From the IMG/VR virus record IMGVR_UViG_2698536476_000007: a stretch of 26,878 nucleotides of DNA; one strand, 5' to 3'. This document shows, piece after piece, positions 1,481-10,348 of this stretch. The position numbers were made by a program, and so were the translations under genes. The notes beneath the pieces are model-generated. The model was not told where the DNA came from. It did no database searches and saw only the letters and a list, made by a program, of their open reading frames with translations. Each line of letters begins with the position of its first letter. Position 1 is the stretch's first letter. Origin of the DNA: a virus. Lineage: Duplodnaviria > Heunggongvirae > Uroviricota > Caudoviricetes.

Positions 1481-2476
1481 GTGACCGTGAGAGCACTACT
1501 GACCCCTGAAATTGCCCCGCGTATGGGGATCGTATTGTTCAGGCCAGGTTCAGAGCTGATGCCCCTGTTTATGCAGGGGCGTGTCCTGCTGGAGCCAGAG
1601 CCGGAACGTTATTCATCTTTCGCCAGTGGTGCCGTTCCGGCGGCAACACAACCGCTGGCGGATGATCCTGCCGTTCGGACCGTGTTCCGCAATGAGGCAG
1701 TGATCCGTCGTGCTGGTGGCGTGGAATGTCATGAAAGCTGGTTACTTCGTGAAAAGGGCTGTCAGTGGCCTCATTCTGACTGGCACAGCGAGAACATGAC
1801 CACAATGCGGCACGCTCCGGGAGCAATTCGTCTGTGCTGGCACTGCGATAACCAGCTGCGTGACCAGTTCACGGAACGGCTGGAATCAATGGCAACGGAT
1901 AACTGTGCCCGCTGGGTGTTGTCTGTCGTGCGTCGGGATCTCGGTTTTGATGACAGTCACGTTGTGACAATGCCGGAACTGTGCTGGTGGCTGGTTCGTA
2001 ATGATCTGGCGGATGCCTTACCGGAAAGTGCAGCCCGTAAGGCACTGAGATTACCGAAGCCTGTTGTGCCATCTGTCACCCGGGAAAGTGACCTTGTGCC
2101 TTCGGTTCCTGCCACCAGCATCATCCAGGATAAGGCGAAAAAGGTGCTGGCGCTGAAAGTGGATCCGGAGTCGCCGGAGTCTTTTATGTTACGCCCAAAA
2201 CGTCGCCGCTGGGTTAATGAAAAGTACACGCGCTGGGTTAAGACGCAGCCGTGTGCATGTTGTGGAAAGCCTGCTGATGATCCCCACCATCTGATAGGCC
2301 ACGGTCAGGGGGGAATGGGTACAAAAGCGCATGATCTCTTTGTGTTGCCTTTGTGCAGAAAGCATCACGACGAGCTGCATGCGGATACCGTGGCATTTGA
2401 AGAGAAGTATGGCTCCCAGCTGGAGTTGATATTTCGTTTTATCGATCGTGCGCTGGCAATTGGTGTGCTGGCCTGA
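1481..2476 (+). CDS. DUF968-family phage protein (YdfU-like) with C-terminal HNH-like Cys/His cluster
   Basis: C-terminal 'CACCGKPADDPHHLIGHG...LCRKHHDELH' is the conserved DUF968 Cys/His motif found in nin-region proteins of lambdoid prophages. GTG start; an alternative GTG at 1487 has a better-spaced GAGG. Confidence 0.6.
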   Translation: MTVRALLTPEIAPRMGIVLFRPGSELMPLFMQGRVLLEPEPERYSSFASGAVPAATQPLADDPAVRTVFRNEAVIRRAGGVECHESWLLREKGCQWPHSDWHSENMTTMRHAPGAIRLCWHCDNQLRDQFTERLESMATDNCARWVLSVVRRDLGFDDSHVVTMPELCWWLVRNDLADALPESAARKALRLPKPVVPSVTRESDLVPSVPATSIIQDKAKKVLALKVDPESPESFMLRPKRRRWVNEKYTRWVKTQPCACCGKPADDPHHLIGHGQGGMGTKAHDLFVLPLCRKHHDELHADTVAFEEKYGSQLELIFRFIDRALAIGVLA

Positions 2477-2493
2477 TTTTGTGGAGAAAGTTG

Positions 2494-2850
2494 ATGCGTG
2501 ATATGTATGAAGTAATGGATCGTTGGGGAGCTTGGGCTGCTTCAGACAATAGCGGAGTGGACTGGCAGCCGATAGCGGCTGGTTTCAAGGGACTTTTACC
2601 TCATGGCAAAAAGTCACGGATTCAGTGTGATGATGACGAAGGCATCATGATAGACAGTTGTGTGGCTCGGTTGAGAAGGTATAAACCAGAGGAATATGAG
2701 CTCATCATCGCCCACTTTGTTATCGGTATCTCATTACGCACTATTGCGAAGAAGAGAAAATGCTCTGATGGCACAATTAGGAAGGAACTGCAAACTGCAA
2801 TGGGGTTTGTTGACGGCTGTTTAGCAATGTTAGCTTATAGTATGGCATAA
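2494..2850 (+). CDS. Q: Late-gene antitermination protein Q (phage 82/21-type)
   Basis: 'VMDRWGAWAA...WQPIAAGFKGLLP...SRIQCDDDEG' matches the 82-type Q family (LERWGAWAA...IAAGFKGL...CCDDD). Sits immediately upstream of the lysis cassette. GGAG at 2483-2486 precedes ATG 2494. Confidence 0.75.
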   Translation: MRDMYEVMDRWGAWAASDNSGVDWQPIAAGFKGLLPHGKKSRIQCDDDEGIMIDSCVARLRRYKPEEYELIIAHFVIGISLRTIAKKRKCSDGTIRKELQTAMGFVDGCLAMLAYSMA

Positions 2851-4044
2851 AAAATAAAATAGATTTACTGCCGATTTTTCAAAAAAGACTGGGAACTGTT
2901 TATATCCAACGTAAATAAGGCCTCCATAAAACATGGCTGATGCGAGATATTTAACAGTTCTCATCCTTTTTTTAGCTTTATCAATCAAACCTGTAATGCT
3001 ACTCTTAATACTATCTGCATTATCTTTGATTTCTTTATTTTCTTCAAACTTTAAATACTTATCGAAAGCGGACTCCACTCGAGAACGTAAGTTGTCGAAT
3101 GTTTCATTGAATATCTCAATAGAAATGTAATTGACTTTTTTTATCATCCAAAGTCCTGCGATAATCAATATTGCTTCGGTTGTTTCATTAGCCTTCACTA
3201 AGCCACCAGCAGCTATTAATGCACCGGGAATAGTCAATGCTTTTGTCTGATTAGATGATATGAATTCGTTAATTTTACTCGTGAACTCAAGATTTTTCTC
3301 ATCGAGTTCGTTAAGAATTTTATTTACAGAAAACCTCTTTGTGTAAATCTCATATAGTTCATCATATTTTTTCCTGACGAGTTCAGTAGAGTTAAGCAAG
3401 TCAAAGAAATTGAACGTACCATTTGCTTTAAATACTTCGTTTATGGCTGAGCGTATAACGAGCTTGCGCTCGCTTTTGTGTAAATCATTGATTTTTATTG
3501 TGTCGAGAAGCTCCTTTATAATTTCATATTTAAGAGACGAGTTCGATAAGCGATTAATCTCGCTATATTGTAAAAAATGCGTGAGTTCGACTGTATAACT
3601 TTTGTCTTCATTGGTGAAAAATAAGACAGAGCAGTCACTGTTATGATGATCAGCAATTAATGAAAGGATATCTTTCCACATAAAGAAAATATGGATTTTT
3701 TCGATGCTTTCATTCTTAGAAGTAGGGAGTATTAACGGCGTTCCGATGATATAATTTTTCGGAAGAGCGTTTTGGGTGTTTACTCTAGACCAAAAAGACT
3801 CAACATTCTCATAAATTATAGCGTCATCCCAAGATGAAGCTTGGCGATCTAGCCAAATTTCATTATTTTCGATGCAGGTTGTTGCCTTTTTATAACCTAT
3901 AGATTGTAACAGTCTAATTATTTCAGAACTATTTACAATAACAATGCTTTCTTCAAGACTTATGACAGTGTAGTAGCCCTCAACTCTGCTTGAGGCTCCG
4001 TTAATAATCTGCGCTAATCTTGATAAGTCATCAGCAATTGTCAT
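2830..4044 (-). CDS. Hypothetical protein, 404 aa; soluble N-domain plus C-terminal hydrophobic helices; downstream gene of the AT-rich cargo operon (candidate effector)
   Basis: Uninterrupted 1.2 kb ORF in very AT-rich DNA, where long ORFs are unlikely by chance. Start ATG lies 2 nt after the upstream gene's TAA (translational coupling). Hydrophobic stretches LTIPGALIAAGGLV, AILIIAGLWMI and YLASAMFYGGLIYVGY near the C-terminus. No family recognised. Confidence 0.8.
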   Translation of the reverse strand: MTIADDLSRLAQIINGASSRVEGYYTVISLEESIVIVNSSEIIRLLQSIGYKKATTCIENNEIWLDRQASSWDDAIIYENVESFWSRVNTQNALPKNYIIGTPLILPTSKNESIEKIHIFFMWKDILSLIADHHNSDCSVLFFTNEDKSYTVELTHFLQYSEINRLSNSSLKYEIIKELLDTIKINDLHKSERKLVIRSAINEVFKANGTFNFFDLLNSTELVRKKYDELYEIYTKRFSVNKILNELDEKNLEFTSKINEFISSNQTKALTIPGALIAAGGLVKANETTEAILIIAGLWMIKKVNYISIEIFNETFDNLRSRVESAFDKYLKFEENKEIKDNADSIKSSITGLIDKAKKRMRTVKYLASAMFYGGLIYVGYKQFPVFFEKSAVNLFYFLCHTIS

Positions 4045-4046
4045 TA

Positions 4047-5222
4047 TTAGCTGTCTCTATATCTTTTGAGTTCATCATAATTTGCCTGACTCAATTTTAT
4101 CACAATTTCGCATTTGTTGTCAGTGAGAATTACAGGCTTATTTGACTTTTCGTCTCCAATAGCTCCACGCATTATTTTCAACTTAAAATTATTGTCGTTA
4201 TCTGCCACTTCAATTGTAAGCGCGCTTTCAGCTGCTTTAGGAGTTGGTTCAAATTGAGGGTCAATCTGGAAACCATTAAGATTAACAAAATCGACAAACG
4301 TTCCCTTACATTTGTGTGAATCAGTCAGGCATGAGTCAATTATTTTTGAAATATCCTCTATCTTAACGGACTTATTTCCGTGTTTATCTTTTGATTTTTT
4401 TTCCAGTAAGGATTTAACTTCATTGTCAATAGTATCACGCAGTACACGACCGAGTGAGTTTTTACTAGCAAAAATATCTATAGCACTGAATAATTGCTGA
4501 ATGCTTCTTTTATTGTCCGAATCATGTCGGCAACCTAATGAGTCTTTGAAAAAATCGCTTTTAGATTTACCTTGCAAGAAATGTACATATGAGTCACCCT
4601 TGTTTTCTGGATAACTGGCTTCGAATAAAGTTAAATCGAACATCGCAGCCTGCCGTAAGGCATCGGTATTAATTGGATTTAATCTTGTTGGGGTCAACTT
4701 ATCCGAATCAAAGTCATAGGCGCTTTGTTTATCAACCATTACGATTAGAAGTTTCCCCAAATCCTCTGGTTCGGTAGACTTATAGTGGATGAAAACAACG
4801 CTCCCCCCCTGAAGTTGGGCAACTCTCGATTCGTTATTAGCATTATGTTTAAGCTTCTCTATTATAGCTCTAGATAAATCAATGAATTCATTATTTTTAT
4901 TAATGTATTTTTTTAGGATCGTAGGAATGGATGAAGGGTTGTGATCTGAGTCTAGGAAGTTATGAAATTTGTTTTTTCGGCTAAATTTTTTCTCAATTCT
5001 GGTTATGAATTCAGATGTGACTTCATTTTTTAGATCCCAAACTTCACCTAATCGATAATCAAATGCTCTTGAATCATTTTTTTCAAGATTTGCTGTTACA
5101 GCACCAATAGGAAAGTACGATTGTTTGCCCAGCACTACAACATGAGGCGTGGCACCGCATTTATCGCAAGCTACAGTTGGGTCGTCAAGAACATTGCCAC
5201 ATTCTAAACAAGTTATATCCAT
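4047..5222 (-). CDS. Hypothetical protein, 391 aa; N-terminal CxxC-x10-CxxC zinc ribbon plus NdpA/YejK-like region; upstream gene of the cargo operon (candidate sensor/DNA binder)
   Basis: Long ORF in AT-rich DNA. N-terminus CLECGNVLDDPTVACDKCG. Central 'GGSVVFIHY...LLIVMV...NPINTDALRQAAMFDLTLFE...YVHFLQGKSKSDFF' parallels the NdpA motif series GGFVLFCHY...LLVAVL...DLTEWE...YLTFLKGRVGRKVADFF, as recalled from memory. Confidence 0.8.
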   Translation of the reverse strand: MDITCLECGNVLDDPTVACDKCGATPHVVVLGKQSYFPIGAVTANLEKNDSRAFDYRLGEVWDLKNEVTSEFITRIEKKFSRKNKFHNFLDSDHNPSSIPTILKKYINKNNEFIDLSRAIIEKLKHNANNESRVAQLQGGSVVFIHYKSTEPEDLGKLLIVMVDKQSAYDFDSDKLTPTRLNPINTDALRQAAMFDLTLFEASYPENKGDSYVHFLQGKSKSDFFKDSLGCRHDSDNKRSIQQLFSAIDIFASKNSLGRVLRDTIDNEVKSLLEKKSKDKHGNKSVKIEDISKIIDSCLTDSHKCKGTFVDFVNLNGFQIDPQFEPTPKAAESALTIEVADNDNNFKLKIMRGAIGDEKSNKPVILTDNKCEIVIKLSQANYDELKRYRDS

Positions 5223-5228
5223 TATATA

Positions 5229-5265
5229 TCCCGAATTATAAGAATGAATTTTTATGTGGCTGAAA
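5229..5265 (-). promoter_or_regulatory. Candidate promoter for the cargo operon (perfect TATAAT -10 on the - strand at 5235-5240)
   Basis: The - strand reads ...TTCAGCCACATAAAAATTCATTCT-TATAAT-TCGGGATATATA-ATG. Perfect -10 hexamer in an AT-rich, UP-like context; the -35 is weak (TTCAGC) and the leader is very short. Confidence 0.3.
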
Positions 5266-5341
5266 ATTCTATCAAAACACTAACGCGTACGCAAAAAGTA
5301 TTGTATTGTGTTAAGAGTGGTTACTTCGCCACACAGCTTAA

Positions 5342-5368
5342 ACCCGCCGTCGAGCGGGTTTTGTCGTT
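5342..5368 (+). terminator. Intrinsic terminator hairpin (ACCCGC-cgtcga-GCGGGT + TTTGTCGTTT), possibly tR'-like for a short Q-dependent leader RNA
   Basis: Perfect 6-bp GC-rich stem followed by a T-rich tract on the + strand, between the Q-proximal region and the holin gene. Confidence 0.5.
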
Positions 5369-5513
5369 TCTGGGCCTGGGGATTCGTTGGGCCTAGTCTA
5401 TCCCGCAGTTATCCATTGGCTCGGCTTCTTTGACGTTTCCGCTTCTGATTTGCGGTACATGATGTTTCCTCAATTTGCACCTGCTGTATCAGCGAGGTGA
5501 GAGATAACTACAA

Positions 5514-5840
5514 ATGCCTCATAACCCAAATACTTGGCTGGAGTTGGTCCAGAGCTGGTGGCGTGGAGACACACCGCTGGGCGCAGTGATTATGTCGATC
5601 GTTATGGCTGGCTTGCGCATTGCCTATTTTGGCGGTGGTGGTGGCTGGAAGAGAAAAACGCTCGAGATTTTGCTCTGTGGCGCTCTGACGCTGACCTTTG
5701 CATCCGCGCTTGAGTATGTCGGATGGCCTAAATCGCTTTCTGTTGCCATTGGTGGTGGCGTTGGGTTGATCGGTGTCGATGCTATTCGTGGGGCTGCAAT
5801 GAGAGTAATCGGTAACAAGTTTGGTGGCTCTAAGGAGTAA
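5514..5840 (+). CDS. S: Holin (lambda S-like, class I)
   Basis: 108 aa with hydrophobic helices; 'GAVIMSIVMAGLRIAYFGGGGGWKRKTLEILLCGALTL' resembles lambda S. Directly upstream of the R endolysin. Confidence 0.85.
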   Translation: MPHNPNTWLELVQSWWRGDTPLGAVIMSIVMAGLRIAYFGGGGGWKRKTLEILLCGALTLTFASALEYVGWPKSLSVAIGGGVGLIGVDAIRGAAMRVIGNKFGGSKE

Positions 5841-5843
5841 TTT

Positions 5844-6320
5844 ATGCAGGTACTAAATTCCCAGCGTAAAGCTTTCCTGGATATGGTGGCATGGTCAGAA
5901 GGAACGGATAACGGGCGACAACCGACACGTAACCACGGTTATGACGTTATTGTCGGTGGCGAACTCTTCACTGATTACTCCGATCACCCTCGCAAACTTG
6001 TCACGCTAAACCCGAAACTCAAATCAACAGCTGCAGGCCGTTATCAACTTCTTTCACGTTGGTGGGATGCTTACCGCAAGCAGCTTGGGCTGAAAGACTT
6101 CTCTCCCAGAAGCCAGGACTCAGTGGCATTACAGCAGATTAAAGAGCGTGGCGCTTTACCGATGATTGACCGCGGCGATATTCGTCAGGCAATCGACCGT
6201 TGCAGCAATATCTGGGCTTCACTGCCGGGCGCTGGTTATGGTCAGTTCGAGCATAAGGCTGACAGCCTGATTGCAAAATTCAAAGAAGCGGGCGGAACGG
6301 TCAGAGAGATTGAGGTATGA
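5844..6320 (+). CDS. R: Endolysin, lytic transglycosylase (lambda R)
   Basis: 158 aa, near-identical to lambda R across its length ([79 protein letters not shown]...). Confidence 0.95.
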
Positions 6321-6754
6321 GCAGAGTCACCGCGATTATCTCCGCTCTGGTTATCTGCATCATCGTCTGCCTGTCATGGGCTGTTAATCATTACCGTGAT
6401 AACGCCATGACCTACAAAGAGCAGCGCGATAAAGCCGCATCCATCATCGCTGATATGCAGAAGCGTCAACGTGATGTAGCAGAACTCGACGCCAGATACA
6501 CAAAGGAGCTTGCTGATGCTAACGCGACTATCGAAAGTCTCCGTGCTGATGTTTCTGCTGGTCGTAAGCGCCTGCAAGTCGCCGCCACCTGTGCAAAGTC
6601 AACGACCGGAGCCAGCAGCATGGGCGATGGAGAAAGCCCAAGACTTACAGCAGATGCTGAACTCAATTATTACCGTCTCAGAAGTGGAATCAACAGGATA
6701 ACCGCGCAGGTTAACTACCTGCAGGAATACATCAGGACGCAATGCCTGAAATGA
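6317..6754 (+). CDS. Rz: i-spanin Rz
   Basis: N-terminus [30 protein letters not shown] is essentially identical to lambda Rz; C-terminus 'QCLK'. Confidence 0.9.
6516..6701 (+). CDS. Rz1: o-spanin Rz1 (lipoprotein), embedded in the +1 frame of Rz
   Basis: AAGGAG RBS at 6503-6508 precedes ATG 6516. Signal peptide [20 protein letters not shown] with lipobox Cys, then a proline-rich stretch ([13 protein letters not shown]) as in lambda Rz1. Confidence 0.75.
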
Positions 6755-8618: not shown

Positions 8619-10348
8619 GCCGGAAATCTTACCCCAACGTAAATGCTGCCAATCAGTATGCCCGTGATGTTGTGCGCGGAAAGATTGTGGCCTGCCAGTT
8701 TGTGATTCAGGCCTGCCAGCGCCATCTTGATGACCTGATGGCGGAAAAAAGTAAGTCGTTTCGTTACCGCTTCGACAAGGACCTGGCTGAACGGGCCGCC
8801 AAATTTATTCAGCTGTTGCCGCACACCAAGGGTGAGTGGGCATTCAAGAGGATGCCCATCACGCTGGAGCCGTGGCAGCTATTTGTGGTCTGCTGTGCGT
8901 TTGGCTGGGTCAATAAAGGGTCCCGGCTGCGCCGCTTCCGGGAGGTGTATACCGAAATCCCCCGTAAGAACGGCAAATCGGCAATCTCTGCCGGTGTTGC
9001 CCTGTATTGTTTTGCCTGTGATAACGAGTTTGGCGCGGAAGTGTATTCCGGTGCCACGACAGAGAAACAGGCGTGGGAAGTCTTTCGCCCGGCGCGACTG
9101 ATGTGTAAACGCACACCCATGCTGACGGAAGCGTTCGGGATTGAGGTTAACGCCTCAAACATTAATCGTCCGGAGGATGGCGCGCGGTTTGAACCGCTGA
9201 TCGGTAACCCCGGTGATGGTTCATCACCCCACTGTGCGGTGGTGGATGAATATCACGAGCACGCCACCGATGCGCTTTACACCACGATGCTTACCGGGAT
9301 GGGGGCGCGACGTCAGCCACTGATGTGGGCCATTACTACTGCCGGGTACAACATTGAGGGGCCGTGCTACGACAAGCGACGGGAAGTTATCGAGATGCTC
9401 AACGGGTCGGTACCCAACGATGAACTGTTCGGGATCATCTATACCGTTGACGAAGGCGATGACTGGACCGACCCGCAGGTGCTGGAAAAAGCTAACCCGA
9501 ATATTGGCGTGTCGGTTTATCGCGAATTTTTGTTAAGTCAGCAGCAGCGTGCGAAAAATAACGCCCGTCTGGCAAACGTCTTTAAAACAAAACACCTCAA
9601 TATCTGGGTGTCGGCGCGTTCGGCGTATTTCAACCTGGTGAGCTGGCAGAGCTGCGAGGATAAATCACTGACCCTTGAGCAGTTCGAGGGGCAGCCGTGC
9701 ATTCTGGCCTTTGACCTGGCGCGTAAGCTGGATATGAACAGCATGGCGCGACTTTATACCCGCGAGATTGACGGTAAAACGCATTACTACAGTGTGGCTC
9801 CGCGCTTCTGGGTACCGTATGACACGGTGTACAGCGTCGAGAAAAATGAAGATCGCCGGACAGCCGAACGCTTTCAGAAATGGGTGGAAATGGGCGTTCT
9901 GACCGTTACCGATGGTGCGGAGGTGGATTATCGCTACATCCTCGAGGAGGCCAAAGCGGCGAACAAAATCAGCCCGGTCAGTGAGTCACCCATCGACCCC
10001 TTCGGGGCGACCGGGTTGTCACATGACCTTGCTGATGAAGACCTGAATCCCGTCACTATCATTCAGAACTACACCAACATGTCCGACCCGATGAAAGAGC
10101 TGGAAGCGGCAATTGAATCGGGGCGCTTTCATCATGATGGCAATCCCATCATGACCTGGTGTATCGGCAATGTGGTCGGCAAAACCATTCCGGGTAACGA
10201 TGATGTGGTGAAACCCGTCAAAGAGCAGGCGGAAAACAAAATTGACGGTGCAGTTGCGCTGATTATGGCGGTTGGCAGAGCCATGCTGTACGAGAAAGAA
10301 GACACGCTGTCTGACCACATTGAGTCCTATGGGATCCGCTCGCTTTAA
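8615..10348 (+). CDS. Terminase large subunit
   Basis: 577 aa; size and position (ATGA overlap with the small subunit, followed by portal), with acidic/ATPase-like motifs such as '[11 protein letters not shown]'. Confidence 0.9.

Follow-up and report, generated by a model that had tools for sequence, protein, structure and literature searches.

We analysed a 26,878-nucleotide (nt) stretch of DNA from a lambdoid prophage (IMG/VR record IMGVR_UViG_2698536476_000007; hereafter the window), whose sequence is identical to prophages of Escherichia coli O103:H2 and other strains. The genes of interest are, from left to right, a KilA-N gene, a DUF968/HNH gene, the gene for the antiterminator Q, two antisense genes, an intergenic region (5223-5513), and the genes for holin, lysozyme and Rz. 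Q (2494..2850, plus strand) is a 118-residue protein of the Q21 family, here assigned to subtype A, with a helix-turn-helix (HTH) reading ...ISLRTIAKKRKCSDGTIRKELQ.... It matches Pfam PF06530, which is the Q21 family (PMC9388147), over its full length (160 bits, E=2.7e-47), and is 45% identical to Q of the Shiga toxin (Stx) 1 phage VT1-Sakai, while the match to the Q21 chains of the structures 6P18 and 6JNX is weak (E=0.0013). The first late gene encodes a holin of the lambda family (5514..5840, plus strand) and is followed by lysozyme (5844-6320, plus strand) and Rz (6317-6754, plus strand); the set was recognised with Pfam PF05106, TIGR01594 and PF03245. We conclude that positions 5270-5369 of the intergenic region are very probably a Q-dependent late control module of a Q21-family lambdoid prophage, consisting of the late promoter PR', a Q-binding element, a short leader and a tR'-like terminator.

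The region 5223-5513 was used as a blastn query and matched phages SfII, SfIV and cdtI, Stx2a-converting phages, PA-2, ev099 and others, with similarity beginning at about 5274. An alignment of six relatives contained a near-invariant block, CTGTTAAGAGTGGTTACTTCG(C/T)CACACAGCTTAAACCCGCCGTCGAGCGGGTTTT, amid dissimilar flanks. The block CTGTTAAGAGTGGTTACTTCG(C/T)CACACAGCTTAAACCCGCC...TTTT is common to SfII, SfIV, cdtI, Stx2a_1447, PA-2, ev099 and the DLP12 prophage of E. coli K-12, again with differing flanks, and in DLP12 it is located between nmpC and essD. It is present in 3721 of 5426 complete E. coli genomes, and a text search of the literature did not find its literal sequence. The module as a whole occurs once in the window (nhmmer, 5271-5363, E=1.9e-29). 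Its homology, as aligned with Sp5, VT1-Sakai and DLP12, spans the dyad described below, the -10 hexamer, TAAGAGTGG, a hairpin and the terminator.

An exact-pattern scan of viral contigs yielded 120 loci. Since this set is biased towards the pattern, a second sample was drawn through Q alone, with the Q protein as the only query and one genome per species (80 loci). In a profile search of these loci, 68 of the 80 had the module downstream of Q and on the same strand at E <= 1e-3, and 74 had it there at E <= 10. Among the hosts of the Q-retrieved loci were Enterobacter, Citrobacter, Yersinia, Xenorhabdus, Serratia, Providencia, Pantoea and others. Sequences 3' of the terminator are shuffled among the Q subtypes (SfII-like, Stx-like, cdtI-like and DLP12-like), and the module therefore travels with Q rather than with late genes. 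Counted from the Q stop codon, the distance to the module is bimodal, either -33 to +40 nt or 0.6-3.0 kb, and the loci with a distance near zero display the canonical adjacency of Q and PR'.

Two loci bear on recombination around the block. A contig retrieved as L010 (IMGVR_UViG_2534682080_000004, about 9190-9330) is a recombinant in which a Q, cargo and promoter of the window's type are joined to a DLP12-type leader; its crossover lies in the invariant block, which shows that the block acts as a mosaic junction. The mutant phage 434B (OL657227, positions 1-2881 of the retrieved locus) carries the DLP12 nmpC::IS5 region and the module, 100% identical over the 141 nt compared. The annotation marks this region as lacking homology to the wild-type phage 434, and recombination with the cryptic prophage of K-12 is thereby suggested.

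We determined the anatomy of the promoter from about 100 distinct modules anchored on the invariant block. The PR' -10 hexamer, TATTGT (5304-5309, plus strand), lies at a fixed position at which every one of these modules reads [T/C]AnnnT, while the middle three bases are free (ACC, TCC, TGC, ATC, CTC, TCG, TTG or CTG). Such a fixed frame around a free middle is the signature of sigma-70 region 2 recognition. The hexamer corresponds to the TATCAT of the annotated VT1-Sakai late promoter. At the left edge of the module, about -46..-37 of PR', lies an A-rich tract, TATCAAAACA (5270..5279, plus strand); in all three Q subtypes a tract of the form TAnAAAAA keeps this distance from PR', although the cargo upstream of it is unrelated, and its position suggests a proximal UP-element subsite. 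A good -35 is found in subtype C only (TTTACG with a 16-base-pair (bp) spacer), whereas the window has CTAACG with an 18-bp spacer. Because of this poor -35 and long spacer, the promoter escaped both the original prediction, made by a model from the letters alone, which could not find a sigma-70 -35/-10 pair by eye, and our own consensus scan, which reported no plus-strand site of at least 9 of 12 in 5223-5513. The promoter is visible only by comparison with relatives.

The start of PR' can be placed by homology. The DLP12 version of the module, used as a query, matched the 3' end of Q in 933W-type Stx phages, where the VT1-Sakai annotation lists a late promoter (TTTACG-16-TATCAT), a 'qut' site, and a first and a second terminator. 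In the Sakai prophages Sp5 and Sp15, the PR' start, from differential RNA sequencing (dRNA-seq), and the 3' end, from Term-seq, are 258 nt apart (Sy et al. 2020; PMC7547250). In Sp5 the tR' U-tract ends at locus position 302, and counting back 258 nt leads to position 45, the central A of GATAAG-A-GTGG, 7 nt after TATCAT; the same count in VT1-Sakai gives the same base. The base aligned with it in the window is A5316 (plus strand), and we predict that PR' starts there, within 2 nt on either side. Two things support a promoter in the window: the conserved TAnnnT, and homology to the Stx-phage PR' with its dRNA-seq start. In the 933W-type Stx phages themselves (VT1-Sakai, locus positions 441-914, and Sakai Sp5, locus positions 1-23), the Q reading frame runs through the A-tract, -35 and dyad of its own PR', and the stop codon is a TAA inside CGTAAAAA.

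The same letters could be read in a shifted register, in which TAnnnT(G) at 5304-5310 would be a sigma-dependent pause element like the TAAGCTG of phage 21. The -10 would then lie in CAAAAA (5292-5297) and the -35 near 5268-5273, and an RNA of about 66 nt would start near 5303. The spacing agrees well with such a reading (11 bp from dyad to TAnnnT, against 12 bp from Q-binding element to pause in phage 21), some relatives read exactly TAAGCTG, and in many subtype A loci a TTtACA-like hexamer precedes CAAAAA by 18 bp. Compensatory changes in the helix 5311-5315/5337-5341, described below, would also make sense if 5311-5315 were transcribed. However, the A-tract lacks the conserved T at -7, and the TTTACG-16-TAnnnT of subtype C is a normal promoter. 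We rejected the shifted register because, with the Sakai start moved upstream by 13 nt, the 258-nt transcript would end inside the tR' stem, and we consider it improbable. A further candidate was a -10 read as TATTGT at 5299-5304, 5 nt upstream, together with a TAAGAGT pause element as in phage 21. This reading suits subtype A, but most sequences of subtypes B and C do not conform to it, and it was discarded.

Between the -35 and the -10 of PR' lies the candidate Q-binding element (qut, or QBE), CTAACGCGTACGCAAAAA (5280..5297, plus strand), which overlaps the weak -35 and holds an 8-bp dyad, GCGTACGC (5285-5292, plus strand; -31..-24). The centre of the dyad is exactly 15 nt upstream of the -10 in all subtypes. 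Four forms of it occur, namely GCGTACGC in the window, GCGG(T/A)CCGC, TTTACG-TA-CGTAAA and TTTACG-AT-CGTAAA, and the matching HTH subtypes of Q read, in the same order, ...CSDGT(I/V)RK..., ...KK(S/D)EKxIRIE..., ...CSDGxIGK... and ...CSDTxIGK.... Each dyad form is exclusive to one HTH subtype, without exception among 108 distinct Q/promoter pairs, a count that includes nine sequences missed by regular expressions and assigned by eye. A single residue, the last of CSDG or CSDT, tracks the central TA or AT of the dyad. The dyad element is therefore likely the Q-binding element.

The dyad could instead be the operator of another regulator (a host factor, a repressor or CRP), with Q acting elsewhere or not at this promoter and the hairpin serving mainly as a terminator of early transcripts or of Q-gene transcripts. 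Sites of dimeric repressors typically have dyad symmetry, unlike the direct repeat bound by Q21, the PA-2 record J02580 annotates a CRP site over GTGGTTACTTCGTCACAC, and the hairpin lies just 3' of the Q gene in cargo-free phages too. Yet Q is the sole constant upstream gene, its neighbours being DUF968 here, rusA-ylcG in DLP12 and nin genes in Stx phages. Moreover, the four forms of the element track residues of the Q HTH, and a promoter start has been mapped inside the module in Stx phages, which makes an unrelated operator very unlikely. The CRP site annotated in PA-2 was rejected from its sequence, its half-sites being spaced by 8 nt rather than 6 nt.

Downstream of the start, the module ends in a tR'-like intrinsic terminator, AAACCCGC CGTCGA GCGGGTTT, then TGTCGTTT (5340..5369, plus strand). 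Its stem (5340-5361) has eight pairs, five of them G-C, around a 6-nt loop and is followed by TGTCGTTTCT (-12 kcal/mol, z = -2.45). The original prediction had already reported an intrinsic terminator on the plus strand here, and it proved to be real, with a U-tract reaching to about 5369; it ranks first among the 11 terminator-like sites of the region scanned (2000-6500, 4.5 kb), where 3.6 were expected. Of 111 distinct modules, 90 have a hairpin with a U-run at the corresponding site, built from 44 different stems, compared with 17 of 555 shuffled sequences (3%). RNA ending there would measure about 51-54 nt, and termination at 5340-5369 may be efficient.

The short PR' RNA is also predicted to fold at its 5' end, where a hairpin pairs GUGGU with GCCAC around UACUUC (5317..5332, plus strand). 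The fold of 5316-5369, which comprises this hairpin and the terminator, reaches -19.6 kcal/mol (z = -3.1). RNAalifold returned no structure from a gappy 80-nt alignment, and two named helices, 5311-5315/5337-5341 and 5317-5321/5328-5332, were evaluated instead on a tighter alignment of 70 sequences. In that alignment 88% of their cells were paired, compared with 33-43% with slid partners, and 30 cells had double changes, compared with 9.2 in shuffles. The pair 5320/5329 alone was G-C in 22, G-U in 13 and A-U in 12 of the 70 sequences. In the outer helix, TTAAG/CTTAA (5311-5315/5337-5341), compensatory changes across genera include T-A to A-T, one G-C, A-T to T-A and G-C to A-T; the 5' arm of this helix lies upstream of the mapped start. 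Spanning the start itself (-3..+3) is a second conserved -10-like hexamer, AAGAGT (5313..5318, plus strand), which keeps the form nA...T in most distinct modules, with a few exceptions such as ATGACT (locus L180) and AAGAGC (locus L152). It may be a pause or loading element.

Considering this fold, the module might mainly be a small RNA (sRNA) gene, encoding an Hfq-type sRNA of about 52 nt like StxS or HnrS, so that the near-invariance of 5310-5369 would reflect targets in trans. Conservation is far higher in the transcribed part than in the promoter, the 5' hairpin and the terminator with its U-tail fold well (the z-score given above), and the short PR' RNAs of Stx phages are functional sRNAs (PMC7547250). 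Against this, the loop and linker vary freely in other genera while the promoter-proximal TAAGAGTG is fixed. No Rfam family reached its gathering score in the whole window, with only chance-level matches in 5150-5600. An sRNA role would in any case add to the PR'/tR' function and not replace it, and we regard the module being primarily an sRNA gene as unlikely. HnrS itself (EcOnc10-12), a 66-nt prophage sRNA, is a different locus: it has three copies in Sakai compared with one copy of the module (80% identity) in O157 genomes, and it is confined to enterohaemorrhagic and enteropathogenic E. coli, whereas the module is found in 69% of E. coli genomes.

The leader of the late (lysis) operon occupies 5370..5513 (plus strand), 144 nt up to the holin ATG at 5514, close to the gap of about 145 bp that had been proposed. 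It is 95% identical in SfII and about 74% identical in PA-2 and DLP12. A G+C-rich hairpin of 10 bp (5370-5396, -14.2 kcal/mol) follows directly after the terminator's U-tract and has no U-run of its own; SfII also has this hairpin, with wobble pairs. A second hairpin (5478-5499) pairs the GAGGUG just upstream of the holin start. This hairpin recalls the sdi structure of lambda S, and the leader is kept in PA-2 and DLP12 despite their different holin class. The whole leader is no more structured than shuffled sequences (z = -0.3).

The two antisense genes between Q and the module occupy 2830..5222 on the minus strand and constitute a DS-1 anti-phage system, as identified by NCBIfam equivalogs and Pfam NA37. 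The gene at 4047-5222 encodes a YejK/NA37-like protein, and its partner, adjacent and in the same orientation, lies at 2830-4044. Both proteins score above their NCBIfam equivalog cut-offs (NF053868, 451 bits against 330; NF053869, 375 bits against 315), while no PADLOC 2023 model matches the cassette. The YejK nucleoid-associated domain is among the newly validated defence domains (PMC13092281). The G+C content of the cassette is 0.35, compared with 0.54 in its flanks. Its 3' end overlaps the Q stop codon by 21 nt (2830-2850), and there is no terminator between the convergent Q and cassette genes at this overlap.

The cassette likely carries its own leftward promoter. A cargo-specific spacer (5223..5269, minus strand; G+C content 0.26), which is not conserved in relatives with other cargo, would comprise the 5' untranslated region of the cassette and the downstream half of this promoter. 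The original prediction took a minus-strand TATAAT at 5235-5240 as a divergent promoter candidate. The hexamer is indeed present, the reverse complement reading TATAAT (5240..5235) 13 nt from the cassette ATG (5222), but it is a weak candidate, at chance level in AT-rich DNA. The window has 11 copies of TATAAT compared with 7.3 expected, a count reached by 10 of 100 shuffles. Six of the 11 fall within the AT-rich cassette region 3517-5240, and a second minus-strand copy (5226..5221) overlaps the cassette ATG itself. The TATAAT at 5240..5235 sits between the likely start region and a GGGA ribosome-binding site; a start about 7 nt past it would leave a leader of about 6 nt without the GGGA Shine-Dalgarno sequence.

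A better candidate for the cassette promoter is TTGATA (5275..5270), 16 nt, AAAAAT (5253..5248), which together span 5248..5275 on the minus strand and score 9 of 12 in the consensus scan. This was the sole promoter-like site that the scan reported in the intergenic region. Its predicted start lies near 5241 and would give a leader of about 19 nt that includes the GGGA. SfII has TTGTAA-17-AAAAAT at the position equivalent to this leftward candidate. We also considered whether all cargos share a leftward promoter whose -35 lies in the conserved T-tract, and rejected this: TTGnnA-16/17-AAAAAT is found in SfII and the window and is absent from other cargos.

The site of the cassette is a recurrent one. 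In every annotated relative the order is Q, antisense cargo, module and late genes. A cassette of two genes fills the cargo position in SfII, cdtI and Stx2a_1447, and a porin gene does so in PA-2, ev099, DLP12 and 434B. Across the loci, at least 20 unrelated antisense cargos were found in the gap between Q and PR'. Six of ten sampled cargo proteins match defence families (PDC-M53A, NsnA/PD-T4-2_A, HEC-04, NsnB/PDC-M55A, PDC-S20 and PD-Lambda-5_A), and several other cargos are pairs of an NA37-like protein and a membrane protein that resemble DS-1. Cargo accompanies every one of the 43 alleles of subtype A, to which Q of the window belongs. Across relatives, the C-terminal ~10 residues of Q vary with cargo type, which places the left recombination junction inside the Q gene.

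Q and PR' are thus not adjacent here, with 2.4 kb of antisense cargo intervening, whereas relatives show adjacency; the loss is a matter of layout, not of mechanism. The original prediction of a late promoter displaced from Q was right about the intervening cargo, but this is nothing peculiar to the prophage and is the norm for its Q subtype. Since the layout with cargo in between is already familiar from DLP12 (quuD-nmpC-essD), PA-2, SfII and cdtI, the displaced promoter, although correctly predicted, is unremarkable. We offer, as a speculation that we think has a small chance of being right, that the gap is a dedicated cargo bay of Q21-family phages, anchored by the last Q codons and by the near-invariant promoter/leader block, in which defence cassettes and porins are swapped. 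With each cargo lying antisense and directly next to Q, and no terminator in between, cargo transcription in the lysogen would cross Q antisense and restrain late-gene leakage as a paQ-like brake. After induction, the cargo would be silenced by convergent early transcription, and the invariant ~52-nt PR' RNA might additionally be a trans-acting sRNA.

The locus is a Q21-family late regulatory cassette of the 933W/DLP12 sub-type, with a PF06530 Q, a promoter, a terminator and the late (lysis) genes located downstream of the module, as this type of cassette requires. The model prediction had placed PR' and qut within 5223-5341, with the cargo between them and Q and a tR'-like terminator after them. 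This placement was borne out by the conserved module at 5270-5369 downstream of Q21-family Q genes, by its homology to the mapped Stx PR' and by the co-variation of the dyad with Q. We propose that RNA polymerase with sigma-70 would start at about A5316, using the -10 TATTGT, the poor -35 and the upstream A-tract. Without Q, a transcript of ~52 nt would end at 5340-5369 and leave holin, lysozyme and Rz silent. After induction, Q would bind the dyad GCGTACGC and load onto the early elongation complex, and by analogy with the nozzle mechanism of Q21 it would make the polymerase terminator-resistant. Transcription would then continue across the 144-nt leader and reach the genes for lysis and morphogenesis. 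The DS-1 cassette of 2.4 kb appears to have been inserted antisense between the Q stop codon and the promoter A-tract, and would be transcribed from its own leftward promoter in 5223-5275.

Several observations weigh against this interpretation. The homologous first hairpin of the Sakai Stx prophages, with seven U, lies upstream of the Term-seq 3' end at +258, which indicates that the hairpin is leaky there; the tR'-like terminator of the original prediction is present and conserved, but its Sakai homolog does not stop the PR' transcript seen by Term-seq. A terminator scan found no second terminator before the holin in the window. From +1 to the terminator there is also no conserved -10-like hexamer to match the pause elements of lambda (+1..+6) and phage 21 (+2..+8); the only conserved candidate is AAGAGT, which spans the start. 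The -35 CTAACG matches at only three of six positions and the promoter falls below the scan threshold, so PR' may be weak or dependent on other inputs. The element is a dyad, unlike the direct-repeat QBE of Q21. Finally, in a comparison meant to tell selection from linkage, the Q subtypes had no cargo type in common, and the co-variation of Q and element could partly reflect tight linkage.

A late-transcription start at about 5316, and ~18 bp that probably give Q its specificity, would make the lysis switch of this prophage directly testable. More broadly, one promoter/terminator module, in four Q-matched versions, is found in about two thirds of complete E. coli genomes and includes the promoter that drives Shiga toxin. 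It could be used for prophage annotation, for finding defence genes by position and for predicting which Q trans-activates which resident prophage. Our additions are modest: they place PR' in this prophage, describe four versions of the upstream element, each matched to a Q subtype, and mark the Q-PR' gap as a frequent site of defence cargo. They leave the known picture of Q-mediated antitermination unchanged.

The module resembles the Q/PR'/qut/tR' (6S RNA) system of lambda, which likewise has a constitutive promoter, a Q loading site within the promoter and a short terminated RNA before the lysis genes. It differs in that lambda Q belongs to an unrelated family (PF03589) and needs NusA, the lambda RNA is 194 nt long with a pause element at +1..+6, and no cargo lies between Q and PR'. 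Phage 21 (6P18, 6JNX; OL657228) shares a PF06530 Q, a QBE between -35 and -10, a terminated leader of about 50 nt and lysis genes downstream. In OL657228 the layout is -35 TTGACA, QBEu/QBEd, -10 AACACT, the start, the pause element TAAGCTG at +2..+8, and a terminator end at +50. Comparison with the PR'-qut region of phage 21, which the model had proposed, held for the position of the element between -35 and -10. It did not extend to the direct repeat of two 8-bp subsites, where the window has a dyad, or to TAAGCTG, which has no positional counterpart here. In addition, the two Q proteins share about 22% identity, Q21 has 162 residues compared with 118 here, and Q and PR' are adjacent in phage 21.

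The Stx phages (933W, H-19B, VT1-Sakai (Sp15) and Sp5) have DNA homologous to the module, with the A-tract, a dyad between -35 and -10, a TAnnnT -10, G-N-TAAGAGTGG, a short hairpin, CTTAA, and a G+C hairpin with U-tract. They differ in having no cargo, in a Q frame that runs into its own promoter, in the dyad TTTACGATCGTAAA paired with a CSDT-type Q, in a detected PR' RNA that ends at the second terminator (+258), and in the tRNA, stx and other genes that precede the lysis genes. The quuD-nmpC-essD region of DLP12, like PA-2 (lc), ev099 (ompD) and 434B, has a Q21-family Q, antisense cargo, the same module and lysis genes. It is distinguished by porin cargo with a long upstream region, a subtype C Q with the dyad TTTACGTACGTAAA, and a phage-21 (class II) holin. 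In DLP12, the Q homologue reportedly controls the essD lysis cassette, a result attributed to Rueggeberg et al. in 2013.

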